A stretch of 64,000 bases of DNA. Source: Wickerhamiella versatilis. Taxonomy: Eukaryota. Of this stretch, positions 199 to 45,525 are shown in pieces. The notes beneath the pieces are model-generated. The model made no database searches. It was given only the letters and a program-made list of their open reading frames with translations, and was not told the origin of the DNA. Each line of letters begins with the position of its first letter. Positions within the stretch are counted from its first letter, which is position 1. The stretch is from contig JAQOWU010000001.1 in assembly GCA_030867685.1 (NCBI GenBank), forward strand, positions 496,001-560,000, read 5' to 3'. Both the position numbers and the translations under genes were made by a program.

Positions 199-2814
199 AT
201 GCAGCTGCTGCTGTGGCTTTTGTACTTGGTACAATGTTTCGCGCCTGTTCTATCCGTGAAGCATTGGATGTTTCGTAAATGTGAGCAGAATCCATTCTGT
301 CAGAGAGCTCGAGATCTCGCATCTCACAGTGGAAGTGAATACACTGTTAGTGAGGTAAAGCCTGGAGACAATGAAATTACTGGGTTCCTTGGCACTCCTG
401 GTGATAAGAGTTTACCATTTTCACTACAGGTGGTTTCTGATGGTGCACTACGCTTCCTTGTAGATGAGCCTGATCGCATTGTAGGCCCGGACTACCTTTC
501 AAATGCACGTTTCGACCCTGATGTGTTCATGCTTGACATGTCGAATAAGAGACGAATTCCGGAAGCAAAAATTGATGTGAAAAAAGATAAAGCTTCTATT
601 CATTTCGATGATGTTGAGGCAACCTTGTTCTTGTCACCCCTTAAGCTTGTTGTCGAGCGCGCTGGAGAACCGTTGGTGGTGCTCAATGAACATAAATTAC
701 TTCATATGGAGACGCTCAGGCAGAAATCTGATTCAGATGAACCTACGATGTGGGAAGATAGCTTTGATGGTCATACCGATAAGAAAATTCGAGGACCTGA
801 GTCTGTCACCGCTGATTTCACGTTTCCAGGAGCTCGTCATGTATACGGAATACCAGAGCACTCTGACTCTCTGTCTCTGAAAGATACAAGAAAAGAGCAC
901 ACAGATCCATATAGGATGTTCAACGTTGATATTTTCGAGTATGAAACAGAAAGTGAGATGCCTATGTACGGTTCTATTCCATTCATGTTGGGTTTACGGC
1001 CCGATGCATGTGCCGGTATTCTATGGCTAAACTCAGCAGATACATATGTTGATATTACCAAGGAAAAGGATTCGACTTGGACCCACTGGATCTCTGAAAC
1101 AGGAAAACTGGATGCATTCATATTTGTTGGAAAAACCCCCACTGATGTCGTTTCGAAGTATTCTGAGGTTGTAGGAACTAATGCATTGCCTCAGTTATGG
1201 GCAATTGCTTATCATCAGTGCAGATGGAACTATAATTCGGAAACTGATGTTTTGAATGTCAACAAGCAGTTTGATGATCATCTAATCCCATACGATGTCA
1301 TATGGCTGGATATCGAATATACTGGCCAGCGTAAATACTTCACGTGGAACGAGCATACTTTCCCGAATCCAGAAAAAATGCTGTTTGAACTAGATGAGAC
1401 CAAACGCAAACTAGTTCCACTTATTGATCCACATATCAAGGTTGCGTCAGACTACGATATTTACAATGACGTTAAAAAAGTTGCAGTTCAAAATGCGGAG
1501 GCATCAAAGCCGTTTGAAGGCCATTGTTGGCCTGGCAATTCTATTTGGATTGACACGATGAACCCAGAATGTTATAAGTATTGGAATAAATTCCACGCAA
1601 TGGGTGCTTTCGGCGGAAATGCGCCAAACCTTGGTATATGGAACGATATGAGCGAACCATCTGTCTTCAGTGGGTCGGAAACAACTGCTTATAAGGATCT
1701 TGTCCATTATGGCGGCTGGCAGCATCGCGATGTACACAATCTGTTTGGTCAAACTTTCACTAATGCAACTTTTGAAGCCCTTTTGCAGAGATATGACCAC
1801 AAGCAAAGACCATTTATTCTCACAAGGAGCTTTTTCGCAGGAAGTCAGCGCCTCGCTGCTACGTGGACTGGAGATAACCAGGCTGAATGGGAGTATCTTA
1901 GAGCAGCGACACCCACTATTCTTACTTTGGGAGTTGCTGGTATGCCTTTCTCTGGAGCGGATGTCGGTGGGTTTTTCCGCGATCCTGAGCCTGAGCTTCT
2001 AACTAGATGGTACCAGAGTGGTCTATTTTATCCCTTCTTCCGCGCTCACGCGCATGAAGATTCTAGGCGACGTGAGCCCTATCTGCTTGCACCACCATAC
2101 AATACTACCATTGCTGCTGCGATTGAACTTAGATACCAGCTTCTTCCACAGTTTTACACCGCTTTCTGGGAGTCTTCAATCAACCTTTCACCTGTCATGC
2201 GTCCAGTATGGTGGGAATACCCATCCGAAGAAGACTGGTACGATGTCGAGGACTCTTTTTTCATAGGTTCAAGTCTCTATGCCCACCCAGTCACCTCAAA
2301 GGACTCTGAGATAAACTTGAAACTCCCCCCTGGAGCTTGGTATGATTACTTTAGTGGTGCTAAGCCAAGCGAGGGTAAGCGTCATGTCGCTCTTGATGAA
2401 ATTCCACTATTTGTTCGTGGTGGATCTATAGTATTCAGACGGGATAGAATTCGCCGGTCTAGTGAGCTGACAATGAGAGATCCATACACCCTACTAGTAG
2501 CACTCAACGATGATGGAAGAGCTGAAGGGACTCTTTATGTTGATGATGGTATATCTTATGCATACGAGGAGGGCCGATATCTGATCACGGACGTCACATT
2601 CGCTGATGGCATTCTGCGCGGAACTCCTCGCCACTCGACTAAGGATCCGTTTGCAAGTGTACCCATTGAAAGAGTCATATTTTATGGTTTGGACAAACCT
2701 GAAAGCGCATCTACTTCAGGAAAGCCGCTTCAAGTTATTTCTCAGGACGATGGTTTTATTGTGCGTAACCCCCGGGTTAAGATAGGCGAAGCATGGGAAA
2801 TCAAATTTGACTAG
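199..2814 (+). CDS. ROT2: ER glucosidase II alpha subunit (GH31)
   Basis: GH31 motifs WLDIEY, WNDMSEPSVF and WTGDN. The start is moved from TTG127 to ATG199, which gives a signal peptide (MQLLLWLLYLVQCFAPVLS). Confidence 0.93.
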   Translation: MQLLLWLLYLVQCFAPVLSVKHWMFRKCEQNPFCQRARDLASHSGSEYTVSEVKPGDNEITGFLGTPGDKSLPFSLQVVSDGALRFLVDEPDRIVGPDYLSNARFDPDVFMLDMSNKRRIPEAKIDVKKDKASIHFDDVEATLFLSPLKLVVERAGEPLVVLNEHKLLHMETLRQKSDSDEPTMWEDSFDGHTDKKIRGPESVTADFTFPGARHVYGIPEHSDSLSLKDTRKEHTDPYRMFNVDIFEYETESEMPMYGSIPFMLGLRPDACAGILWLNSADTYVDITKEKDSTWTHWISETGKLDAFIFVGKTPTDVVSKYSEVVGTNALPQLWAIAYHQCRWNYNSETDVLNVNKQFDDHLIPYDVIWLDIEYTGQRKYFTWNEHTFPNPEKMLFELDETKRKLVPLIDPHIKVASDYDIYNDVKKVAVQNAEASKPFEGHCWPGNSIWIDTMNPECYKYWNKFHAMGAFGGNAPNLGIWNDMSEPSVFSGSETTAYKDLVHYGGWQHRDVHNLFGQTFTNATFEALLQRYDHKQRPFILTRSFFAGSQRLAATWTGDNQAEWEYLRAATPTILTLGVAGMPFSGADVGGFFRDPEPELLTRWYQSGLFYPFFRAHAHEDSRRREPYLLAPPYNTTIAAAIELRYQLLPQFYTAFWESSINLSPVMRPVWWEYPSEEDWYDVEDSFFIGSSLYAHPVTSKDSEINLKLPPGAWYDYFSGAKPSEGKRHVALDEIPLFVRGGSIVFRRDRIRRSSELTMRDPYTLLVALNDDGRAEGTLYVDDGISYAYEEGRYLITDVTFADGILRGTPRHSTKDPFASVPIERVIFYGLDKPESASTSGKPLQVISQDDGFIVRNPRVKIGEAWEIKFD

Positions 2815-2958
2815 AAAGTGATCTAAATTGGGATATAATCCTATCAAAAATATAAAACTAAAGGTATTAGGCATATTTGCAGGCTAGACCACATCACTGA
2901 TATCAAGAAACATTCCAAGTATCGCATGGGAGGGTAAGGTTTAGTTCAGGCGTAAGCT

Positions 2959-4017
2959 ATGAGCCAGGATGAACAAATTGAATCGTTCTGCAGAGGCATT
3001 CCAAAAATTGAACTGCACTGCCATTTATATGGAACTATTCGAAAATCTACATTTGAAGAACTAAACAAGGAGGCGGGTTGTCCTCTTTCATCCACTGAAA
3101 TCGATGAATTTTATACGCGTGGATCCAAGCCAGTAGGGGTACTTAGAATATTTCGGGCACTAGATTCCGACCTAATTCGGAAGCCTGAACATTTGGAAAG
3201 GATAACTGGTGAATATCTGGAAGACATAGCGCAGCATAATGTGCAATACTCTGAATTCTTTTGGAACCCCACAGGCACCGTTCGCATTTCACGGATCCCT
3301 TTTGTTGAGGCTCAACGTGCCATATTATCAGCTATGGAAAAGTCAACCGTTGATTCGAGGCTTATAATGTCCATAGATAGAGAGCAAAGTGCTGAGGAGG
3401 CGGTTGATATGGTCAGATGGATGATCCAACACCGATCAGAAAACGTGATTGGAATCGGTATTGACTATCGGGAGGAGCTGGGACCACCTGAAAAATTTGA
3501 GAAGGCATATCGTCTCGCTAAAGAGGCCGGGTTTCGAGCAACTGCACATGCAGGTGAATTCGGTTGTTCCCCGAAGAACATTAGAGCTGCTATAGATTTA
3601 TTGGCGGTCGATAGAGTGGACCACGGTTACACAGTGATCGAGGATCAAGAGTTGACTGAGAGCTGTATTCGGGATAATATTATATTTTGTGTCGTACCTA
3701 CGAATTCATACTATTTACGTACTTTGCCCCCGGAGGAATGGTCCCGAAAGCATCCTATAAGAGAGATGGTACGACTAGGTATACGGCTATTCCCCAATAC
3801 TGATGATCCCGCTTTTCACCATGTCACACCTACTGGTGCCTGGGCTATGATGGTTAAGTACTTTAATTGTGGAGTAAACGACCTCCGTCATTTTGTTATT
3901 AATAGTATAGATGCTTCCTGGCTTCCTGAATCTCGCAAAGAGCAATTACGGAAGGAATGGCCAGTTTATTTCGACAATACAGGCTTATCCTGTTTAGAAT
4001 CTTCTATAAGAGGTTAG
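2959..4017 (+). CDS. Adenosine/adenine deaminase family amidohydrolase, bacterial-like
   Basis: Metal-binding and catalytic motifs PKIELHCHL, AHAGE, RVDHG and NTDDP are all intact. Confidence 0.9.
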   Translation: MSQDEQIESFCRGIPKIELHCHLYGTIRKSTFEELNKEAGCPLSSTEIDEFYTRGSKPVGVLRIFRALDSDLIRKPEHLERITGEYLEDIAQHNVQYSEFFWNPTGTVRISRIPFVEAQRAILSAMEKSTVDSRLIMSIDREQSAEEAVDMVRWMIQHRSENVIGIGIDYREELGPPEKFEKAYRLAKEAGFRATAHAGEFGCSPKNIRAAIDLLAVDRVDHGYTVIEDQELTESCIRDNIIFCVVPTNSYYLRTLPPEEWSRKHPIREMVRLGIRLFPNTDDPAFHHVTPTGAWAMMVKYFNCGVNDLRHFVINSIDASWLPESRKEQLRKEWPVYFDNTGLSCLESSIRG

Positions 4018-4042
4018 GTTTCTGTTATCAGTGAAAGAAAAA

Positions 4043-5467
4043 ATGAACTTAGATTTTGGATCAGACATGGCGAAATTTGATGGAACTGTTACTTCGCTTG
4101 AGGAAGAGGAGGAAGCGGAGATTGATATGCGTCGCCTTACCAGGAAGGTAGACATCCGTATATTACCTCTACTTCTTTTAACCTACAGTCTACAATTCAT
4201 GGACAAGCTAGCCCTCTCAAACGCTTCGGTATACGGTATAAGAGATTCAAACAACATAGATGATTCACAGTATTCATGGGTGTCATCAATTTTCTATTTC
4301 GGATTTCTTGCTGGTCAGTTTCCGCTGGTAGAGCTGGCTAAAAAATATCCATTGGGTAAAATTGCTGGCCTTTCTGTGATGGTCTGGGGTGCTATATTAG
4401 CTTGCACCGCTGCATCTCATTCCTATGGCGCTTTACTTGCTTGCAGATTTCTATTGGGTTTATTTGAATCGGCTATATCGCCGACGTTTGTGCTCTTGAC
4501 CTCAAGGTGGTATACCCCTTCACAGCAGCCACTGCGAATAAGTTTTTGGTTTGCAGGAAATGATCTTGGTGGTATCGTAAGTGGGTTCATTGCGTTTGGA
4601 ATTGGTCACATCACGGGCTCGCTTTACCCATGGCAATACCTCTTCATCATATATGGTTGTGCCACTTTTGTGCTGGGGATTGTTCTTTTCTTTTTCCTGG
4701 CAGATGATCCATCTAGTGCTAAATTCTTGACTGACAATGAACGGTCATGGTATGCCCAAAAAAATCAAGTCTCAGCCAGGGAGCCATTCAATTGGTACCA
4801 GGCATTAGAGGCATTAATAGACCCTCAGTTATTGCTTTATATCTCTCTAACTGTGCTCAATATTCTTCCAAATGGCGGAGTGGTATCATACGGGTTAATT
4901 CTCGTCAAGTCGTTTGGTTTTTCCTCCATTGAAACCACTGCTTTACAGGTGCCAGGCTCTGCCATCACATGGATAGCTATATTATTATTCGGCTTGCTGT
5001 CTTCCAAAATTCCTAATTTCCGTTGTTATGCTCTAGCTCTTACTGTCCTTCTTCCAATTGTTGGGGCTAGTGTCCTCTACAGGTTACCGGAGTCACCCAG
5101 GGGAGTCAGACTAATGGCATATTATTTTCTCCTAGTACAGCCGGCGACATTCCCTCTTCTTCTGGCTATGATAACTTCCAATATTAAAGGGGCCACAAAG
5201 AAGCCAACATCAACTGCAATTATTTTTATTTGGTACTGCGCTTCTAATATAGCGGCACCTCAGCTATTTCGCGAAGCTGAAAAACCAGCATATCCTACGG
5301 CAATGAGAGCATGGATCGTATGCTTTGCCTTGACGGTTCTACTTTCAATGATACTACGCGCTTACTTGGGCTGGCAAAATAATCGTCGAAAAAAATCGCC
5401 AGCCGAAAATGTTTCGGAACCAGAAAAATCAGATCTCAAGGATTTTTCATTAATTTATCTGTATTAG
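4043..5467 (+). CDS. MFS anion:cation symporter (allantoate permease/DAL5-like family)
   Basis: LTRKVDIRILP, LQFMDK, QYSWVSSIFYFG and about 12 hydrophobic segments. First ATG is 4043 (the ORF track starts at GTG4031). Confidence 0.9.
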   Translation: MNLDFGSDMAKFDGTVTSLEEEEEAEIDMRRLTRKVDIRILPLLLLTYSLQFMDKLALSNASVYGIRDSNNIDDSQYSWVSSIFYFGFLAGQFPLVELAKKYPLGKIAGLSVMVWGAILACTAASHSYGALLACRFLLGLFESAISPTFVLLTSRWYTPSQQPLRISFWFAGNDLGGIVSGFIAFGIGHITGSLYPWQYLFIIYGCATFVLGIVLFFFLADDPSSAKFLTDNERSWYAQKNQVSAREPFNWYQALEALIDPQLLLYISLTVLNILPNGGVVSYGLILVKSFGFSSIETTALQVPGSAITWIAILLFGLLSSKIPNFRCYALALTVLLPIVGASVLYRLPESPRGVRLMAYYFLLVQPATFPLLLAMITSNIKGATKKPTSTAIIFIWYCASNIAAPQLFREAEKPAYPTAMRAWIVCFALTVLLSMILRAYLGWQNNRRKKSPAENVSEPEKSDLKDFSLIYLY

Positions 5468-5530
5468 GCACGCATTGATAGGCATAAAGTGGACCTCGGG
5501 TTAGGTTATAGGGGCCTCAGGTAGTACTTC

Positions 5531-6748
5531 ATGGATCTAATAGCGTCATCTGATTGGCGACGAAAGATAGTGAGGCGCTTTGGCCCTCACTGGATGGATC
5601 CACAACGTGTTTCTAAAAGCTACGATCATTTATATTTAAGCGCTGAAGTGGTTGGTCGTGATGATGTGGCTGACGCGCTTCGACAACGTCTAACTCCAGA
5701 ATTATTCCAGCAAGAGGCTCCACTATTAGAGACCCTACGACTACTGGCGGGTGACTGGTTAGAAGCACCTCTTCCTGTTTTTGTAGAGTCTGTCCCGGAT
5801 ACCCCTACATGGGCAGAGTTAATGCAGGGACTTAGTGATCGATCACTGGATTTCAGCCCTTCTTCATCAATGCATTCAAGTAATTCCTCTTCTGTTAGTG
5901 ATACTAGTGAAAATTCGTCCTTTGGTGAAGCACTACAGGATCAAGAGGTTTGTATTAAGGCACCAACATATATGGCACCTGCTATACCTAGTGAGCTAAG
6001 CCCGAGGCAAGTAATTGATGAGGCTAGGCTTGTCATGGCTGGCTTCCCTTCCGTTTTGGAATCAGTTCGCAAGATTCATGGTTTGTCAAGCCTCTGCAGT
6101 CAGGCTTATATTAAAGAACTATTAACTCAAAGAAAGCCGTTCAATGAGGCCCATACGCTTCTCCAGTGTTTAGCACAATGGCGCCTTCGATCAGAAAAAG
6201 GTGGTAATAAAGAAGTTGATGTCATCCAGGCAGACAATTCGGATATATCTAGTCCTCCCAATGACATTCACGAAGTACAGGTGAAATCGTGGCAATATCA
6301 TATCGAAAGCTTGCATAATAAAGTAAGAATTTTGCGACCGATCTTAGCCAGAGACTGGTCTATACTTGCAGGAATTTTTCTTGGACAGGATCCAAGAATG
6401 CTTGATTACATGTGGAGATGTCGGCATTTATTAACTCAACAGCACCGAATACCTGCTGCGGCTGAACTTTCTGTCAGTTGGCCCCACGCACCTTTTTACC
6501 TCGATAATGAGTGTATTCCAGTGGCAACCTCCTTGGCACCAGAAACATGGAATCATGTGTCAAGGTCTCATCTAAGGGATTCGTGGAAACGGATTCTGAA
6601 TGCTATTGCAGGACCACCAAGCCTAGAATCTGCTATCCTCCAGTGTGAAATGCATAAAATATCTACAGAAGTTGAAAATTTTATCAACAGCAGTTTGTCG
6701 CTGCAAATTGTCTTCCCGCTCACAAGCAAATCTGACAGTGTTATCTAG
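5531..6748 (+). CDS. Hypothetical protein; N-terminal part resembles fungal gamma-tubulin complex component GCP5
   Basis: 405-aa ORF from an ATG. Segments GRDDVADALRQRL, PTWAEL and RQVIDEARLVMAGFPS recall GCP5 N-terminal blocks. Confidence 0.5.
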   Translation: MDLIASSDWRRKIVRRFGPHWMDPQRVSKSYDHLYLSAEVVGRDDVADALRQRLTPELFQQEAPLLETLRLLAGDWLEAPLPVFVESVPDTPTWAELMQGLSDRSLDFSPSSSMHSSNSSSVSDTSENSSFGEALQDQEVCIKAPTYMAPAIPSELSPRQVIDEARLVMAGFPSVLESVRKIHGLSSLCSQAYIKELLTQRKPFNEAHTLLQCLAQWRLRSEKGGNKEVDVIQADNSDISSPPNDIHEVQVKSWQYHIESLHNKVRILRPILARDWSILAGIFLGQDPRMLDYMWRCRHLLTQQHRIPAAAELSVSWPHAPFYLDNECIPVATSLAPETWNHVSRSHLRDSWKRILNAIAGPPSLESAILQCEMHKISTEVENFINSSLSLQIVFPLTSKSDSVI

Positions 6749-6799: not shown

Positions 6800-7909
6800 A
6801 TGTCTGAGAAAGATCCAACATTCTTTGATATTCTCACAGGCTTGTATGTCAATGCTGTCGACAAAAAGGTTCCGAAGATTCGGAAACAGGTCGTACGGGC
6901 AAAACGGAAGCTGGACCCACAAGGAGAAAGATTCTGGCAGCAGATGACTCGCGTGGATAGAATGTTCAGGGAGAATCATGTAGTCAGTCGTACAAACAAG
7001 ATTTGGTTTGCCGTATCTATCCTCAATATTTTTTGGTTTGGAATTCTGATAGGCAGTCTACCAGACTGGGTTCATGTCGTATACACAGTTGAGGTTGCCT
7101 TTCTCTTGCCTATTCGTTTTATCACGTACAAACTACGCGGTATGCAATATTACCTGGCAGATATCTGCTACTACGTTAATTTTTTGACGTTCTTATACAT
7201 TTGGGTCTGGCCGGAGTCGAAAGTCTTGTGGATATCAATATACGCATTCAGTTTTGGCACCCTCTGTATGGCGGTGATTGTTTGGCGAAACTCGCTGGTA
7301 CTTCATTCCATCGATAAGACAACGAGTGCATTTATTCATCTCCTCCCCCCTACAACATTACATACCATCAACTTCCGAATCCCGGCACAATTCAAAGCAG
7401 AGCGTTTTCCTGCGGCCCTCAAGGTTGAAACATGGGCAACGTTGCGCGCTCTACTAATAACAACCGCATTTTATTGGGTATGGCAGGTTTCATATCAGTA
7501 TTTTATCACTTTTCGCAAGAAGGATAAGATCGCAAACGGAAGAGTCACAAGTTTTGAGTTTATGCGCAGGAAGTACGCCAAGACAGCAATTGGAAAATTT
7601 GTAAACTCACTACCTGGTGTTCTACCTCATATTGCATTTGCTGGGATTCAGTTCGGATTTCAGCTTGTTACTATGATCCCATGCCCGCTACTCTACAAGC
7701 ATGAAAGCCTCTCAACATGTTACCTTGTGTTCGTTCTATCAGTTGCTTCATATAATGGTGCAACTTACTATATAGATGTCTTTGGCGAGCGATTTCATAA
7801 GGAATTGAAAGCACTCCAAGAGGAGCTGGATGAAAGTGACGATGATCAATCATCGGAGGAATCTTCCTCAAAGTCCCATGAAGAGTATACACAAAAAAAG
7901 AATAAATAG
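6800..7909 (+). CDS. GPC1: Glycerophosphocholine acyltransferase (DUF2838), copy 1
   Basis: YYLADICYYVN, WRNSLVLHSIDKTTSAFIHLLPP, GRVTSF and YNGATYYIDVFG. First ATG is 6800. Confidence 0.85.
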   Translation: MSEKDPTFFDILTGLYVNAVDKKVPKIRKQVVRAKRKLDPQGERFWQQMTRVDRMFRENHVVSRTNKIWFAVSILNIFWFGILIGSLPDWVHVVYTVEVAFLLPIRFITYKLRGMQYYLADICYYVNFLTFLYIWVWPESKVLWISIYAFSFGTLCMAVIVWRNSLVLHSIDKTTSAFIHLLPPTTLHTINFRIPAQFKAERFPAALKVETWATLRALLITTAFYWVWQVSYQYFITFRKKDKIANGRVTSFEFMRRKYAKTAIGKFVNSLPGVLPHIAFAGIQFGFQLVTMIPCPLLYKHESLSTCYLVFVLSVASYNGATYYIDVFGERFHKELKALQEELDESDDDQSSEESSSKSHEEYTQKKNK

Positions 7910-8405: not shown

Positions 8406-9593
8406 ATGCTAATTGAGACTAGGGATAAGCCCACAGTAGTCGATCTAACGAAACTTTATGTGGATACGTTTGATGATCACGTTCCACGCTTGCGGAAGCA
8501 TGTTGATCAAATGCGGCACAAGTGGGGCCCTAGCAGACGGCGAATTGAGGACAAACTGAAGCAGCAGATTCAGAGGCTTGATAAGACATTCAATGAGGAG
8601 TCGGTTGCAAGTCGCGTCGATAAAATATGGTTTGCAGTTTCTGTTCTCAACATTTTTTGGTTTGGAGTGTTTATAGGCAGTATGCCACAATGGGTCCACG
8701 TAATTTATACAGTCCAACTCGCTATCTTGCTTCCGATTCGGTTCTATACCTTTTTCTGCAAAGACTGGCAATATTACCTTGCGGATTTGTGCTACTTTGT
8801 GAACTTGATCACTATGCTATACATATGGGTTTGGCCTCAATCCAGCTTTTTGTGGATTTCATCTTACGCTTTCAGCTTCGGTACGCTATGTTTGGCTGTT
8901 GTTCTGTGGCGAAACTCATTTGTACTTCATTCCGTTGAGAAGACCACTAGCACCGTCATACATGTACTCCCGCCCGTGATTCTTCACACTATTAACTTTC
9001 GGATTCCAAATGAACTGAAGCGCAGTCGGTTTCCGGGTGCCTTATCCGTTGGTACGTGGACAGGCTTACGCTCTGTCATGATAACTACGGTCACTTATTT
9101 ACTATGGCAATTATTTTACCATTACTTTATCACTATTCGGTGTCGAGAACACATCGCTCGTGGTCGAGTAACGAGCTTTGAGTTCCTAAGGCGAAAGTAT
9201 GCGAAGGCTTGGGTGGGAAAATTTGTAAATTCGCTTCCCGGGCATTTCCCGCATGTAGCCTATGCACTTATTCAATTTGGACTACAGCTTTTAACCATGG
9301 TCCCGATTCCCTTATTCTACCATTATGAATGGCTGTCAACAGCCTATCTCATCGCTATCTTCTCTGTCGCATCTTATAACGGTGCTAGCTACTACGTAGA
9401 CGTCTTTGGGAAGCGTTTCCACAAAGAGCTTGTGAAATTGCAGAAAGAATTAGAGAATGATCAATACCACAAGTCTTCCGTCTTGCGTGAGGCCTCTTCC
9501 AAAAACAATATCCTCGCTTCAGAAAAAGTCAAGATGCCATTTTCTACAAGTGATCCTTTTGAGTGTAAGAGTGCTCCTGTGTTAGCCTATTAG
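8406..9593 (+). CDS. GPC1: Glycerophosphocholine acyltransferase (DUF2838), copy 2
   Basis: Same motifs as the upstream paralogue (YYLADLCYFVN, WRNSFVLHSVEKTTS, YNGASYYVDVFG). Confidence 0.85.
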   Translation: MLIETRDKPTVVDLTKLYVDTFDDHVPRLRKHVDQMRHKWGPSRRRIEDKLKQQIQRLDKTFNEESVASRVDKIWFAVSVLNIFWFGVFIGSMPQWVHVIYTVQLAILLPIRFYTFFCKDWQYYLADLCYFVNLITMLYIWVWPQSSFLWISSYAFSFGTLCLAVVLWRNSFVLHSVEKTTSTVIHVLPPVILHTINFRIPNELKRSRFPGALSVGTWTGLRSVMITTVTYLLWQLFYHYFITIRCREHIARGRVTSFEFLRRKYAKAWVGKFVNSLPGHFPHVAYALIQFGLQLLTMVPIPLFYHYEWLSTAYLIAIFSVASYNGASYYVDVFGKRFHKELVKLQKELENDQYHKSSVLREASSKNNILASEKVKMPFSTSDPFECKSAPVLAY

Positions 9594-38097: not shown

Positions 38098-38168
38098 GCA
38101 TTGGTGGTTTAGTGGTAAAATTGGTCGTTGCCATCGACTAGCCCCCGGTTCGATTCCGGGTCAATGCA
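38098..38168 (+). tRNA. tRNA-Gly (GCC)
   Basis: 71-nt cloverleaf. Acceptor stem GCATTGG/TCAATGC, anticodon loop TTGCCAT, T-loop GGTTCGATTCC, and a T-rich terminator downstream. Confidence 0.96.
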
Positions 38169-38296: not shown

Positions 38297-38941
38297 TTAG
38301 CGGCTAAGCGATCGTAGAACATTCAACGTTGATATCGCGTTGAACTGCAGCCATTGAGCCGTACTATCTCCGGCATACTCCAAATTACCCCAACTATCTA
38401 CCAACTTTTCTGCAAGTGCAAGTGTGTCACGGAAACGTCTTGACTTATCCCTCGCCATGAAAGATTCACTGGCAGCATAAATTCCAGCAAGTGAGCCCCG
38501 TCTGGTATACCACGTAGTATCAGTGCTACGATCACCCGCAAGGTACCATATTTCATCAGACAGCGCATTTAACGGTTTAAGCGAGCCAGGCAGACCACAA
38601 GCCATTATCTTTGTGGCTTCGCCCAGCTGAGATCCCAATTTTTCATTTGCCAGCAATCGAGAATGTAGAAGTTCCTTAACGCGAGACGTAGGATCCAATG
38701 CCTTTAATTCAACATCTTTTAGCGATTGTAATTCACGCGAATAATTGTGCTCGACAAGAGCCCGGGCTGCTCCCTGGGGGAATATGCTGACCACCTGATC
38801 CGAGAGCCCAAGATGCCGTGTGGCCTCGGTAACTGAATCCTTCCACCCTAATCGTGGGACGAAAGGTAGTGCCACATCAAGTATGTCCGTGACCTGGCGC
38901 GTAGCGTAACCTCGACAAAAACCTCGACGCAATAATGACAT
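38297..38941 (-). CDS. COQ9: Ubiquinone biosynthesis protein
   Basis: FVPRLGW and LSDEIWYLAGDRSTDTTWYTRR..LAGIYAASE. Confidence 0.9.
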   Translation of the reverse strand: MSLLRRGFCRGYATRQVTDILDVALPFVPRLGWKDSVTEATRHLGLSDQVVSIFPQGAARALVEHNYSRELQSLKDVELKALDPTSRVKELLHSRLLANEKLGSQLGEATKIMACGLPGSLKPLNALSDEIWYLAGDRSTDTTWYTRRGSLAGIYAASESFMARDKSRRFRDTLALAEKLVDSWGNLEYAGDSTAQWLQFNAISTLNVLRSLSR

Positions 38942-38973: not shown

Positions 38974-40107
38974 ATGGACGGTGCTCTCTCCCGAAACAAC
39001 ACCCGTCGGTCACAGTACGCATTGGTTCTCGTTATGAACCCCATGAATGGGACATTTGATAAAAAAAACTTGTTCCTCCCGTTCAAACCAGAAGTCCTCA
39101 AGCTCGGCCGCCAAACATCTCCTAAGCTTGTGGCTGCCTCGAATAATGGTCTTTTTGACTCACGCGTGCTATCGCGGCAGCATGCAGAAATATGGGCTGA
39201 CAGGGATACCGGAAATGTGTGGATCAAAGATTGCAAGAGCTCCAACGGCACCTACGTTAATAGGCGACGACTTAGTGGCGAGAATACCGAAAGTGATCCT
39301 TTCCCGCTTAAGCAGGGGGATATCCTTGAACTAGGCGTGGACATTTCTACCGAAGAGAGTTCTACACTGGTTTATCGCAAGATTTCCGCCCGTATTGAAA
39401 AGATTTCTTTTGTATCCCTCACCGCAAAACAGATTGAGCAGCAGCGCACGCAGCCAAAGCCAGCATCGTTGCCATCTATAACAACGAGGGCTGCCCAGAA
39501 GACAGAAACAAGTCTACAAAATGCGGTGTTTGGGACGGCGTTGGAGACTTTGGTGATGCCATACCTTTCCAGTACATCTAACACTACAGGACTAGCCATG
39601 AAAGAAGAAATGCGCTCACAATTGAATTTTGAACTGGCCGCAAAAATACTAGTGAGCCAAATCCGAGCTGTCTATGTTGATACTGCGAGGATTCAGAGTG
39701 TACGAACGATGCTGGAGGCTATGCGCGCTGGAAGTGGTGCTTCTCGAGATGAGGAAACTATAGAAAAACTCAAGGAGGAGAACGATTTATTGAGAGCCGA
39801 AATTATGCAGCTTCGAGATGCGCCCAGTCAAGCCGTTGTTCCAACAGCTGTTACCCCGTTAGCAGGTCCACAACGACAACACACACGCCAAACGTCTGAA
39901 AATCAAATGCTGAGGCAGCTCAGAAGACCGCGACGCGAGAAGGTGCTCCGTCCCTCGGAGATCAATAACCTTGTGCTTTTAGTTGTAACCACTTTGCTTA
40001 TGACGACGACGGGAGTCTTCATTATGTACTTCTTCAATCCACCTGTATGGCAAGCAGAGTGGCTAGCAGATGCGACTGGCTGGACCAGTCCGAAACTTGC
40101 ATTTTAA
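38974..40107 (+). CDS. FHA-domain tail-anchored STRIPAK/Far complex protein (Vps64/Far10-like)
   Basis: LKLGRQT...FDSRVLSRQHAEIW...DCKSSNGTYVN, then a coiled coil and a C-terminal TM segment. Confidence 0.85.
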   Translation: MDGALSRNNTRRSQYALVLVMNPMNGTFDKKNLFLPFKPEVLKLGRQTSPKLVAASNNGLFDSRVLSRQHAEIWADRDTGNVWIKDCKSSNGTYVNRRRLSGENTESDPFPLKQGDILELGVDISTEESSTLVYRKISARIEKISFVSLTAKQIEQQRTQPKPASLPSITTRAAQKTETSLQNAVFGTALETLVMPYLSSTSNTTGLAMKEEMRSQLNFELAAKILVSQIRAVYVDTARIQSVRTMLEAMRAGSGASRDEETIEKLKEENDLLRAEIMQLRDAPSQAVVPTAVTPLAGPQRQHTRQTSENQMLRQLRRPRREKVLRPSEINNLVLLVVTTLLMTTTGVFIMYFFNPPVWQAEWLADATGWTSPKLAF

Positions 40108-42133: not shown

Positions 42134-43729
42134 ATGTATTTCAGCCTAGGAGCTGCAATATGGATGGGGGTGAAACCATTGGTTAAGATTTATGGTACCA
42201 TTGGTGCTGGCTATCTAGCTTCACACAAAGGGATTCTGACCATGGAGTCAGGCCGGGCTATAGCATGGCTAGTCCTGTACTTCTTTATGCCAGCATTGAT
42301 TTTCTATAATATTGTTTCGAATATTATGGATACAGATATTGAGATGCTGGGAGTTCTGTGTCTTTCAGGAGCAATATATTACGTTCTCGGCCTTCTCTTT
42401 GGTCTATGTGTTTATCTAGTGTCACCAATTCCCCGTGGCTGGTTTGGTGGTTTGCTGCTTTGTTGTATGATCAATAATGCCTCAGATATGCCCATAGCTT
42501 ATGTTCAAACTATAGGGGGCTCTGGAGTAATGCCTTCTGGCTCAAGTTCTCTGGGTGGAGCATATACCGTTCTTTTCAGCTTGATGTTTAATATAATCAC
42601 ATTCAATCTTGGTGGAACTAGGCTGGTTGAGTGGGATTTTAATCGCTTCGATCCCAGCCGGAATGAGCCAACAAAACCACTATTATCGTGGAAGGCGTGT
42701 AAAGATTTTTACCGTCGCCATTTAGGAAAAAACGATGCAACAACCAAAGAGGAAGCCCAAACTGAGCATCACAACTCTATAAGTAGGACTCGAACTATGT
42801 CATCGACGGATAGCAGAGATGGCAATTCTGATCTGGCACGCTCGTATTTCGGCCGTACCGTTTCACGGGCAAGCGACTCTGTTGCTTACTCTAGTAGCAA
42901 TGTTGATACGGATACAAATCAGCTTCAGAGGTACAATACCGCACAGTCTTTTATCTCGACCATGGCCGGGGCTGATTCCGCCAGGTTTAATCGTGACGAC
43001 TCAGACGGACAAGATACGGCTTCTATATCTGGAATAATTCCATTGCATGTTGTGAAAAGCTCTCAACCAAAGTCGAGACCGCAAAAGATTAAACAGTGGT
43101 GGTTAAAGAAATGGAAGAAGTTTGAGAAAAAGAATTATGCTACTATGTATATTTCTCATTTTATATGTGATCTGGCAGCACCTCAAATGCTCGCTTTAAT
43201 GTCTGGCATTGCTATTGCGATGATACCATGGGCCAAAAGGTGTTTTTCCAACCAACAACATATTGGTGGATTCAGAGACCCACCAGATGGACTACCTCCA
43301 CTAGATTTTATCATGGTTTTTCTAGATTTTTTTGCTGGGGCTCAAATTCCATTAGGTCTAATAATGGTTGGTGCCACAATTCAGCAACTCAAGATCGGCC
43401 GTCTTGTCCCCGGATTCAAGCGTACTGCAGTTCTCATAGCCGCATTCAAATTGGCAATTCTACCAATTATTGCTTGTGGTTGGATTGTGGCACTACGTGA
43501 ACTCGGCTGGATTGACAAGGATGATCCCTTGGCCGCCATAGTTTTAGCTGTGGATGCCGCAACACCCTCTGCTACCGTGCAAGTTTACGTTACTGCGTTA
43601 CACAGCGACCCTAATGGCGAAAAGCTTGAACTGAACTCTTTCGGTTATTGCCTAATTATTCAATATATTTTCATGCCCATATCTCTGACAATCGTCGTTG
43701 CTTTCGTGCTGAAACACTTCTCCGCTTAA
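42134..43729 (+). CDS. ECM3: Auxin-efflux-carrier-family (PIN-like) membrane transporter, Ecm3-like, copy 1
   Basis: LGAAIWMGVKPLVKIY, NASDMPIAYVQT, FNLGG and PPDGLPPLDF, in a 5+5 TM layout around a hydrophilic loop. Confidence 0.8.
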   Translation: MYFSLGAAIWMGVKPLVKIYGTIGAGYLASHKGILTMESGRAIAWLVLYFFMPALIFYNIVSNIMDTDIEMLGVLCLSGAIYYVLGLLFGLCVYLVSPIPRGWFGGLLLCCMINNASDMPIAYVQTIGGSGVMPSGSSSLGGAYTVLFSLMFNIITFNLGGTRLVEWDFNRFDPSRNEPTKPLLSWKACKDFYRRHLGKNDATTKEEAQTEHHNSISRTRTMSSTDSRDGNSDLARSYFGRTVSRASDSVAYSSSNVDTDTNQLQRYNTAQSFISTMAGADSARFNRDDSDGQDTASISGIIPLHVVKSSQPKSRPQKIKQWWLKKWKKFEKKNYATMYISHFICDLAAPQMLALMSGIAIAMIPWAKRCFSNQQHIGGFRDPPDGLPPLDFIMVFLDFFAGAQIPLGLIMVGATIQQLKIGRLVPGFKRTAVLIAAFKLAILPIIACGWIVALRELGWIDKDDPLAAIVLAVDAATPSATVQVYVTALHSDPNGEKLELNSFGYCLIIQYIFMPISLTIVVAFVLKHFSA

Positions 43730-43929: not shown

Positions 43930-45525
43930 ATGGACTTTAGTATAAGAGCTGCCATTTGGATTGGGGTGAAACCTCTATTCAAGGTATATGGCACAATAGC
44001 GGCGGGATATATTGCTTCGTCTAAAGGTGTTCTTACCGTAGAGGCGGGGCGTACAATCTCTTGGCTAGTCTTGTACTTTTTCATGCCAGCCCTTATCTTT
44101 TATAACATTGTTTCGAATATAAAGGATACAGATATCAAAATGTTAGGAGTATTGGATCTGTCTGCTTTCATCTATTATATCATTGGATTATGTTTTGGTG
44201 TTATCGTTTATTTGATCTCACCAATTCCACGAGGATGGTTCGGTGGACTGCTACTTTGTACACTTCTTAACAATTCCTCTGACATGCCCATCGCATATGT
44301 TCAGACACTCGGAGATTCTCAGCAGATGGCGAAAGGGTCGAGTGCCTTAGGAGGTGCATATGTCGTTCTTTTTTCCCTGGTGACCAACCTAATCACCTTT
44401 AACCTTGGAGGAACTAGACTAGTAGAGTGGGATTTTGCCCGACATGATCCCCACCGGGATGAACCAACAGTCCCCTTGATATCGTGGAAATCTTTTATGA
44501 ATTTGTGGCGGTCTATGACGAAAAAACCTGAAAAGAGTGAGGTTGAATCTTCTCATGAAGAGCCGCAATCTATATACGAGCAACGTCCGCGAAGAGGATC
44601 AAATTACGAATTGTCGAGTGCTTACTTTGGTCGGGTTCGCTCTCGCGCCAGTGAATCAGTTATTTTGTCCCGTGAACGGCCAGATATATCTGAAAGAGAC
44701 AATCCGCTTCGCAGATACAGAACTTCCGGCTCATTTTTATCGGTAATGAGTGGAGCTGATAGCGATGACAGGGAGTGGGCTGAGGATGCTGTTGTTGATG
44801 CTAATGACGAGTCGGCGGTAGAGGAACCCGAGCAGCCCGAAAAAAGTGCTAGCTCTCCACAGACTCAGTCGAAAGCTTCTAGGTTCAAAGCTCGTCTCAA
44901 AAAGAACTGGAGGAGATTCGAGCATAAAAACCTTGCCACTACTTATATCTGCCATTTTCTTGAAGACATATTAAGCCCCCAAATAATTGCTGTCATACTT
45001 GGTATTACAATTGCGATGATTCCATGGGCAAAAAGATGCTTCTCTAATCAACAAACTATACATGGCTTCAAAGACCCACCAGACGAGCTTCCACCTTTAG
45101 ATTTCCTAATGGTTTTTTTTGAATTCTTTGCCGGAGCTCAAATTCCTTTAGGTCTTATCATGGTTGGAGCATCTATTCAGCGCCTTAAGATTGGCCGCCT
45201 TGTGCCTGGATTCTGGCGGACTGCTTTGATTGTGACTGCTTTCAAATTGGCTATATTACCAATTATCGCATGTGGCTGGATCTCTCGATTAAGAAAAATT
45301 GGTTGGATTGATAGAGATGATCCGTTGGCTGCTGTGGTATTGGCAGTAGGAGGTGCAACACCATCGGCAACAGTTCAGATTTATATCACTGCATTGCACA
45401 GTGATCCTAATGGTGAACAGCTTGAACTCAACTGTTTTGGCACGTGCTTGATAATGCAGTATATATGTCTACCTATCACTCTGACATTTGTGGTCGCCTT
45501 TGTGTTGAAAAACTTTGCATCATGA
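43930..45525 (+). CDS. ECM3: Ecm3-like membrane transporter, copy 2
   Basis: Clear paralogue of the upstream gene with near-identical TM regions. Confidence 0.8.
   Translation: MDFSIRAAIWIGVKPLFKVYGTIAAGYIASSKGVLTVEAGRTISWLVLYFFMPALIFYNIVSNIKDTDIKMLGVLDLSAFIYYIIGLCFGVIVYLISPIPRGWFGGLLLCTLLNNSSDMPIAYVQTLGDSQQMAKGSSALGGAYVVLFSLVTNLITFNLGGTRLVEWDFARHDPHRDEPTVPLISWKSFMNLWRSMTKKPEKSEVESSHEEPQSIYEQRPRRGSNYELSSAYFGRVRSRASESVILSRERPDISERDNPLRRYRTSGSFLSVMSGADSDDREWAEDAVVDANDESAVEEPEQPEKSASSPQTQSKASRFKARLKKNWRRFEHKNLATTYICHFLEDILSPQIIAVILGITIAMIPWAKRCFSNQQTIHGFKDPPDELPPLDFLMVFFEFFAGAQIPLGLIMVGASIQRLKIGRLVPGFWRTALIVTAFKLAILPIIACGWISRLRKIGWIDRDDPLAAVVLAVGGATPSATVQIYITALHSDPNGEQLELNCFGTCLIMQYICLPITLTFVVAFVLKNFAS

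Follow-up and report, generated by a model that had tools for sequence, protein, structure and literature searches.

Two adjacent genes in a 64,000-nt stretch of Wickerhamiella versatilis (contig JAQOWU010000001.1, positions 496,001 to 560,000; hereafter the window) pair a deaminase of bacterial type with a permease of fungal type. The two open reading frames (ORFs) lie on the same strand, 25 nt apart. We read them, with slightly better than even confidence, as an evolutionarily kept two-gene cluster for uptake plus deamination, made up of a bacterial-origin deaminase and a fungal permease of the Dal5/anion:cation symporter (ACS) type. Homologue searches and trees support a chimeric pair that joins an enzyme of bacterial descent to a carrier of fungal descent. 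A first-pass annotation had proposed an operon-like module at this position; the chimeric, linked module is supported here, whereas its operon-like character is not. The pair consists of the following features:

2959..4017, + strand: deaminase ORF of 352 aa with stop codon TAG; adenosine/adenine-deaminase family, a zinc amidohydrolase and probable xenolog.
4018..4042, + strand: spacer of 25 nt from the deaminase stop to the permease ATG, with an A-rich run (AAGAAAAAA) right before the ATG.
4043..5467, + strand: permease ORF of 474 aa; major facilitator superfamily (MFS) protein of the ACS (Dal5/allantoate-permease) type.

The ORFs, their Pfam assignments and the spacer confirm the earlier description of an intact deaminase ending at 4017 and a same-strand permease ATG at 4043. 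Translation probably starts at this ATG: P0122, the permease's closest relative (72-73% identical), has its own start at the aligned position and a similarly short N terminus; an alternative in-frame ATG at 4070 would give a gap of only 52 nt. The two ORFs occupy different frames (2959 is 1 modulo 3 and 4043 is 2 modulo 3), and a read-through fusion of deaminase and permease is excluded by the frames and by a spacer length indivisible by three. Opposite 2959-5467, the minus strand holds no ORF of at least 80 aa.

Ancestry of the deaminase and the permease

The deaminase matches Pfam family A_deaminase (PF00962) at E 1.3e-48, scoring 166.3 bits where the cut-off is 27 and covering profile positions 1-325 of 330. 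Residues H20, H22, H197, E200, H222, D282 and D283, which fall in the HxH, AHAGE, DHG and TDD motifs, are invariant in a 17-row alignment (A2), and judged by these residues the enzyme is catalytically intact and looks functional. A search of the PDB matched 4gxw_A at E 1.3e-120 over residues 9-340 and the next deaminase at 1.2e-32, with other deaminases (3rys, 3ou8 and mammalian ADA) reaching only 1e-32 to 1e-22. A sequence match at the level of 4GXW fixes the predicted fold. In an exhaustive representative search the deaminase groups with representative P0029 at 57% identity, and its sequence assigns it to a mainly bacterial subfamily of COG1816 typified by PDB 4GXW. The latter we take to be an amidohydrolase of Burkholderia ambifaria that belongs to COG1816 and has no assigned function; the literature searched yielded no published substrate for it.

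Homologues of the deaminase are given here as the best 120 of 3762 matches. One is 99% identical, one 80% and five are 58-63% identical, with the rest at 53-58%. Among these 120, Hyphopichia burtonii (62%) is the only species-named eukaryote, and no eukaryotes other than the yeast clade were found. The non-yeast matches that carry a species name are Burkholderiales or Pseudomonadota in 14 of 14 cases, with Variovorax, Ramlibacter, Herbaspirillum, Hydrogenophaga and Acidovorax among the genera, and the nearest ESM-Atlas clusters are likewise bacterial. Together with the match to 4gxw_A, these bacterial names uphold the earlier description of the enzyme as bacterial-type.

A FastTree tree of 133 rows places the window deaminase and seven further sequences in one yeast clade (support 100), all members of which differ in residue composition from the other rows aligned; the remaining listed rows, beyond these seven yeast sequences, group with bacteria from several phyla. 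A rooted IQ-TREE tree of 56 rows was built with an outgroup of ten distant full-length relatives from the exhaustive representative search, which returned 5528 matches at E <= 1e-3 and 108 at E <= 1e-30. Here the yeast clade (100) has a single sequence as its sister (95) and lies inside a 42-row clade (SH-aLRT 96) that contains Burkholderiales, and Alphaproteobacteria, Myxococcota and Entotheonella branch earlier. Since the subfamily is otherwise bacterial, the deaminase most likely reached the yeasts by horizontal transfer from a bacterium. We infer this direction mainly from distribution, a broad multi-phylum bacterial family standing against a handful of yeasts.

Comparison of the yeast and bacterial enzymes points to sites of yeast-specific change. 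At least 90% of the 113 non-yeast rows agree at 182 positions; of these positions, all seven yeast rows share the bacterial residue at 113 and all seven depart from it at 12 (residues 13, 64, 203, 205, 208, 228, 260, 264, 278, 285, 286 and 342). Several of the 12 adjoin catalytic residues, namely M203C, the loss of W205, H278F, T285A/S and L286F. These replacements could reflect a change of substrate after the permease partner was swapped. A CTG codon at 3013-3015 encodes the nearly invariant L19 of the deaminase; a CUG-Ser reading was considered, and CTG at this position fits the standard genetic code instead. One relative of the enzyme, P0362, is a 679-aa protein in which the deaminase domain (47% identical, residues 340-678) is fused to an N-terminal half. 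Our literature searches found no paper on the yeast xenolog deaminase or on the pair. The supplements of PMC5897096 contain none of the terms 'adenosine/adenine deaminase', 'A_deaminase' or 'PF00962', and the available portion of the supplements of PMC13376923 contains no 'adenosine/adenine deaminase', 'PF00962' or 'allantoate'.

The permease matches Pfam MFS_1 (PF07690) at E 3.4e-37, above the cut-off. Its best NCBIfam model is the bacterial-built TIGR00893 (2A0114), at E 2.8e-58 and 197.7 bits, which is below the cut-off of 395. The protein is accordingly described here as resembling the ACS/Dal5 family of the MFS (TC 2.A.1.14) in type. Its best matches are sequences 100% and 73% identical, followed by Priceomyces carsonii (54%), three at 48-52%, H. 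burtonii (44%) and Brettanomyces bruxellensis (42%), and then by many Pezizomycotina proteins at 37-45%, to which the name 'allantoate permease' has often been attached automatically. Identity to bacterial ACS transporters is only about 29%, across half of the length. A yeast permease clade was recovered both by FastTree (10 of 103 rows, support 100) and by IQ-TREE (9 of 18 rows, support 100/100), as sister to a Pezizomycotina group labelled allantoate permease. Homologues, best model and trees all agree with the first-pass view of a fungal carrier of ACS/Dal5 type. The permease is of fungal descent and unrelated to the permease that partners the enzyme in bacteria.

Gene linkage in yeasts and bacteria

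Linkage in other yeasts was read from equal longest-contig values in the deaminase and permease match tables, and this is how far the synteny check proposed in the first-pass annotation could be taken. By this measure relatives of both genes co-occur in four cases, on contigs of 120711 (P0002/P0122), 16203 (P0014/P0126), 3753 (P0018/P0125) and 1978862 nt (P0004/P0127), the last from H. burtonii. On the 3753-nt contig a deaminase ORF of 392 aa and a permease ORF of 473 aa fill 2601 nt, and must therefore be neighbours. The longest-contig value 120711 also belongs to a relative (P0242, 83%) of ROT2, the gene upstream of the pair in the window, so that the whole ROT2-deaminase-permease neighbourhood is plausibly syntenic there. 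The relatives in these four cases are only 44-80% identical to the window proteins.

Both gene trees recover a group of the window and the 120711-nt contig and a second group of H. burtonii and the contigs of 16203 and 3753 nt. The order inside this trio differs between the trees; when put to the permease data, the order of the deaminase tree was not rejected (p-AU 0.225 in the approximately unbiased (AU) test). Wickerhamiella sorbophila appears in neither the deaminase matches (best 120 of 3762) nor the permease matches listed. For a cluster, linkage is on these comparisons stronger evidence than spacing. It suggests two genes kept together in evolution, as in a nitrogen-scavenging cluster rather than a true operon.

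We then compared the pair with the surroundings of 4GXW-like deaminase genes in bacteria. Pfam was run on 19 loci, 17 of them from genome contigs (18 were found and L007 was too short) and two from plasmid-collection replicons (Burkholderia/Novosphingobium), with ORFs selected by a filter on GC content at third codon positions (GC3). Purine-related neighbours occur in 6 of the 19. Xan_ur_permease is present in Collimonas (L001), Burkholderia cenocepacia (L019) and Novosphingobium (L020), and IU_nuc_hydro in L005, L010, L012, L019 and L020. The B. cenocepacia locus runs from a porin through IU_nuc_hydro, a divergent LysR regulator and an NCS2-type Xan_ur_permease to the deaminase, the last two on the same strand with a 45-nt gap; a B. 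arboris locus (L022) has the same arrangement as judged by ORF layout alone, without Pfam. In Novosphingobium a TonB receptor, an M20 peptidase, a nucleoside hydrolase, a nucleobase permease and the deaminase all lie on one strand, and the Collimonas locus holds the permease, LysR and a porin. A nucleoside hydrolase adjoins the deaminase in L005, L010 and L012, the latter two of which also carry ABC-transporter genes. The GIDYRE motif is common to the yeast enzyme and the four loci of nucleobase-permease layout (L001, L019, L020 and L022), and L005, L010 and L012 carry N or I at its R position.

By analogy with these scavenging loci, the subfamily would on the best reading have as its core role to deaminate a purine base, either adenine or some modified form of it. 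The substrate need not be adenine itself, since COG1816 includes an enzyme that refuses both adenine and adenosine. That enzyme, Patl2390 of COG1816 group 3, is described in the available part of PMC13296781 as a cytokinin/N6-substituted adenine deaminase. Like the yeast deaminase it is a COG1816 member, a likeness drawn from that description and not from sequence, and it indicates a family that reaches beyond adenosine. It appears neither among the deaminase matches listed (best 120 of 3762) nor in the PDB search.

A more distant relative of the deaminase, 39% identical, ends a same-strand cluster on the Salmonella enterica plasmid CP076091.1 (L023, 2913-8104). The cluster order is a DcuC C4-dicarboxylate transporter, an amidohydrolase, an asparaginase and the deaminase, a further case of a transporter gene grouped with hydrolase genes, and the carrier here is an anion carrier.

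The junction in a compact genome

The surroundings of the pair and its candidate regulatory elements are as follows:

199..2814, + strand: ROT2, glucosidase II alpha subunit (GH31), upstream neighbour outside the module, with Pfam Glyco_hydro_31 domains.
2815..2958, + strand: intergenic region of 144 nt, presumed promoter and 5′ untranslated region of the deaminase.
3985..4029, - strand: two GATAA motifs at 3985 and 4025, seen as TTATC on the + strand; a candidate element of the permease promoter for GATA-factor (nitrogen-regulated) control.
5468..5530, + strand: spacer of 63 nt from the permease to the next same-strand ORF.
5531..6748, + strand: downstream ORF of 405 aa, no Pfam family assigned.

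The best species-named match of ROT2 is W. sorbophila (53%), followed by Trichomonascus, Sugiyamaella and Blastobotrys (44-48%).

The window represents a very compact yeast genome. In a survey of 46 non-overlapping ATG ORFs of at least 110 aa, the coding fraction was 0.79 and the 18 tandem gaps measured 25, 44, 51, 51, 51, 63, 95, 111, 144, 185, 191, 200, 274, 286, 496, 604, 626 and 941 nt. The 25-nt gap of the pair is the minimum of these same-strand gaps; five others measure 44-63 nt, so that 6 of 18 are at most 63 nt. Tight gaps also separate functionally unrelated genes, as between a MutS homologue and a metallo-beta-lactamase-fold protein (51 nt) and between a ferric reductase and a WD40 protein (51 nt). 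The gap is at the edge of a continuous distribution and is not an outlier, and the first-pass annotation was right to caution that spacing alone is weak evidence in such a genome. Both protein ends that meet at the junction are under weak constraint: the last nearly invariant deaminase column is F338, with 14 residues after it, the first invariant permease column past M1 is D37, and the conserved cores lie about 178 nt apart, against a median tandem gap of about 165 nt in the window.

Both GATAA motifs lie at most 60 nt upstream of the permease ATG, where about 0.14 would be expected from the window rate of 0.0024 per nt; the motifs were examined post hoc and are a lead only. Ahead of 4043 the nearest ATG is at 3957, which leaves an 83-nt ATG-free stretch (3960-4042). 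Upstream of the deaminase, 2815..2958 holds five GATA/TATC cores against 1.35 expected from the window rate, a weak lead that is also post hoc; canonical GATAA or GATAAG was not found in this 144-nt region. A structured RNA element at the junction (3975-4095) was considered and rejected, with z +0.57 and 140 of 200 shuffles folding at least as well.

As sequence features, the GATAA motifs and the ATG-free leader would be easier to reconcile with an internal permease promoter than with a bicistron. The operon-like reading of the first-pass annotation finds no support in a gap that is merely the extreme of a compact genome, in an unremarkable junction fold or in elements that suit an internal promoter, and the operon-like aspect is probably genome compaction. 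Most likely the genes are expressed from two separate, overlapping transcripts. The deaminase mRNA would then have its 3′ end where the permease ORF starts or further on, and the promoter and start site of the permease would be embedded in the 3′-terminal part of the deaminase ORF, which is under little constraint. Both genes may respond to nitrogen via GATA factors.

Other features of the window are given as observations in their own right. Just 3′ of the pair lie two DUF2838 tandem paralogues on the + strand (6800-7909, 369 aa, and 8406-9593, 395 aa) that share very similar sequence blocks. Two Mem_trans (auxin-efflux-carrier-like) tandem duplicates of 531 aa each occupy 42134-43729 and 43930-45525, also on the + strand. 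One tRNA was found in the window, tRNA-Gly(GCC) at 38098-38168, between PRMT5/Hsl7 and COQ9. COQ9 (38297-38941, - strand) and an FHA-domain ORF (38974-40107, + strand) are divergent and only 32 nt apart, which leaves hardly any space for a shared promoter.

Proposed function, rival readings and known systems

In the reading we favour, the permease would import a purine-like, probably anionic, nitrogen compound, and the deaminase would hydrolyse its exocyclic amino or substituted-amino group, freeing ammonium or an amine as a source of nitrogen. In this way the pair in yeast would rebuild the bacterial logic of permease plus deaminase with a non-homologous fungal carrier. We infer the shared substrate and its nature from the relatives and gene contexts described above, and the transcript structure from the junction. 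Several observations weigh against this reading. The deaminase scores below every adenosine-deaminase equivalog cut-off of NCBIfam: the best equivalog, TIGR01430, gives 194.8 bits against 216.55, and the other models (NF0068xx) give 33-168 bits against cut-offs of 412-549. In the AU test a tree with all 39 bacterial ingroup rows monophyletic and the yeasts outside was not rejected (p-AU 0.367); nesting within the bacteria, and hence the donor lineage, is therefore not established. The contig values that link the genes in relatives do so with orientation and spacing unseen, and the H. burtonii case consists of a shared 1.98-Mb scaffold alone, which says little. P. carsonii and B. bruxellensis have a permease of the clade and no named deaminase among the 120 listed, and the permease can therefore exist alone.

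The bacterial contexts also supply contrary evidence. No purine-related neighbour is present at 13 of the 19 loci, and none of the 19 has an MFS/ACS partner. Nine loci from alphaproteobacterial metagenome-assembled genomes (L002, L003, L004, L006, L008, L011, L013, L015 and L016) instead carry an OpuAC-type ABC transporter (6 loci) and/or MmgE/PrpD (7 loci), in a layout where the divergent OpuAC-type (betaine-like) transporter flanks the deaminase and the MmgE/PrpD-family protein follows; four loci have unrelated neighbours. The OpuAC and MmgE/PrpD context, which has no obvious purine link, may point to a different substrate, and the substrate of the subfamily may be non-uniform. Given the 12 yeast-specific replacements, the bacterial gene context may in any case not be predictive of the yeast substrate. 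Finally, we know of no Dal5-family carrier that moves purine bases.

A possible, though doubtful, alternative is that both proteins serve purine/ureide nitrogen catabolism but handle different molecules and are linked for co-regulation, with the permease importing allantoate, a ureide or another organic anion and the deaminase acting on intracellular adenine or modified adenine. The yeast DAL cluster is a precedent for co-regulated linkage at the level of a pathway, and allantoate is itself a purine breakdown product. The 'allantoate permease' label on the nearest non-yeast relatives of the carrier, the purine-related contexts of the bacterial deaminase, the GATA-type motifs upstream of both ORFs and the occurrence of the permease in named yeasts with no listed deaminase would all be consistent with this division of labour. 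However, the label is automatic and is given to most Dal5-family members, and the neighbours of the pair (ROT2, an unknown ORF and the DUF2838 proteins) include nothing else of purine catabolism. A bolder extension of the favoured reading, which we regard as rather unlikely, is a portable two-gene nitrogen-scavenging cassette assembled in yeasts: the bacterial deaminase would have lost its nucleobase permease, captured a fungal Dal5-type carrier, shifted substrate and moved as a unit between distant yeast orders (Wickerhamiella-like and Hyphopichia lineages), with the 25-nt junction perhaps allowing occasional bicistronic expression.

That the linkage carries no functional tie, the genes having arrived or been kept on one segment and the short gap being compaction only, seems improbable. 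The frequency of tandem gaps of at most 63 nt (6 of 18), the equally tight 51-nt pairs of unrelated neighbours and the scaffold-level nature of the H. burtonii linkage would suit it; set against these are four contig coincidences among relatives 44-80% identical, one of them on a 3.7-kb contig, the compatibility of the deaminase and permease trees, and the pairing of the same enzyme with a permease in bacteria. Least probable is an operon-like bicistronic mRNA from which the permease is translated by reinitiation after the deaminase stop 25 nt upstream. The common strand and the shortest spacer in the window speak for it, as do reports, in the available parts of the sources, that yeasts of the W/S clade (Wickerhamiella/Starmerella) have some transcripts of a bacterial operon that are potentially bicistronic (bioRxiv 10.1101/399394) and that yeast can be induced to 80S reinitiation on bicistrons (PMC11952965). 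The available part of the latter source also holds, however, that a second cistron is normally untranslated in yeast (PMC11952965), and the junction has no unusual RNA structure. Two separate overlapping mRNAs appear more likely than a translated bicistron, because the permease is not of bacterial origin, so that the arrangement is no relic of a bacterial operon, and because the bacterial gene order (permease, then deaminase) is reversed.

The favoured two-gene cluster can be set beside several known systems. PDB 4GXW, deposited as 'adenosine deaminase', belongs to the same subfamily as the yeast enzyme, matches it over the full length and has the HxH, AHAGE, DHGY and NTDDP motifs and GIDYRE in common with it, whereas the yeast proteins depart from the bacterial residue at the 12 positions named above, where conservation in bacteria is at least 90%. 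The canonical ADA/Add enzymes and the ADA-like adenine deaminases (3rys and 3ou8) have the same Pfam family and the same metal and catalytic residues, but are matched only at E 1e-22 to 1e-32, and the yeast enzyme reaches none of the NCBIfam equivalog cut-offs. HxHL is followed by Y or F in the yeasts, by L in the bacterial subfamily and by E in 3rys. The bacterial purine scavenging loci L019, L020 and L001 have the same enzyme subfamily and likewise a transporter gene adjoining the deaminase gene; they differ from the yeast pair in transporter superfamily (Xan_ur_permease as opposed to MFS/ACS) and in gene order, which is reversed, and the yeast partner is of fungal descent.

The closest parallel comes from the same yeast group. 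The W/S clade is described as unusually rich in bacterial genes in the available parts of PMC13376923 and PMC9044934, and in its yeasts, according to the accessible text of PMC11043216, bacterial ent operon genes work with the fungal importer ENB1 in an enterobactin system. There, too, horizontally acquired bacterial enzymes are joined to a fungal MFS-type transporter, as far as the available text of these sources goes (PMC11043216; bioRxiv 10.1101/399394). That system arose by transfer of an entire operon and its function has been demonstrated by experiment, whereas the present pair comprises one enzyme gene with an adjacent transporter and is known from sequence alone. The pair represents a kind already known, in which an enzyme gained by horizontal transfer clusters with a native yeast transporter, and it opens no long-standing question. 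If our reading is correct, it would offer a handle on a deaminase subfamily that has a solved structure (4GXW) and no published substrate in the literature searched, and a minimal-scale parallel to the ent operon and ENB1 in the same yeast group. It would also be a compact case of a eukaryote domesticating a bacterial catabolic enzyme, discarding the bacterial transporter and recruiting a native carrier from an unrelated superfamily.

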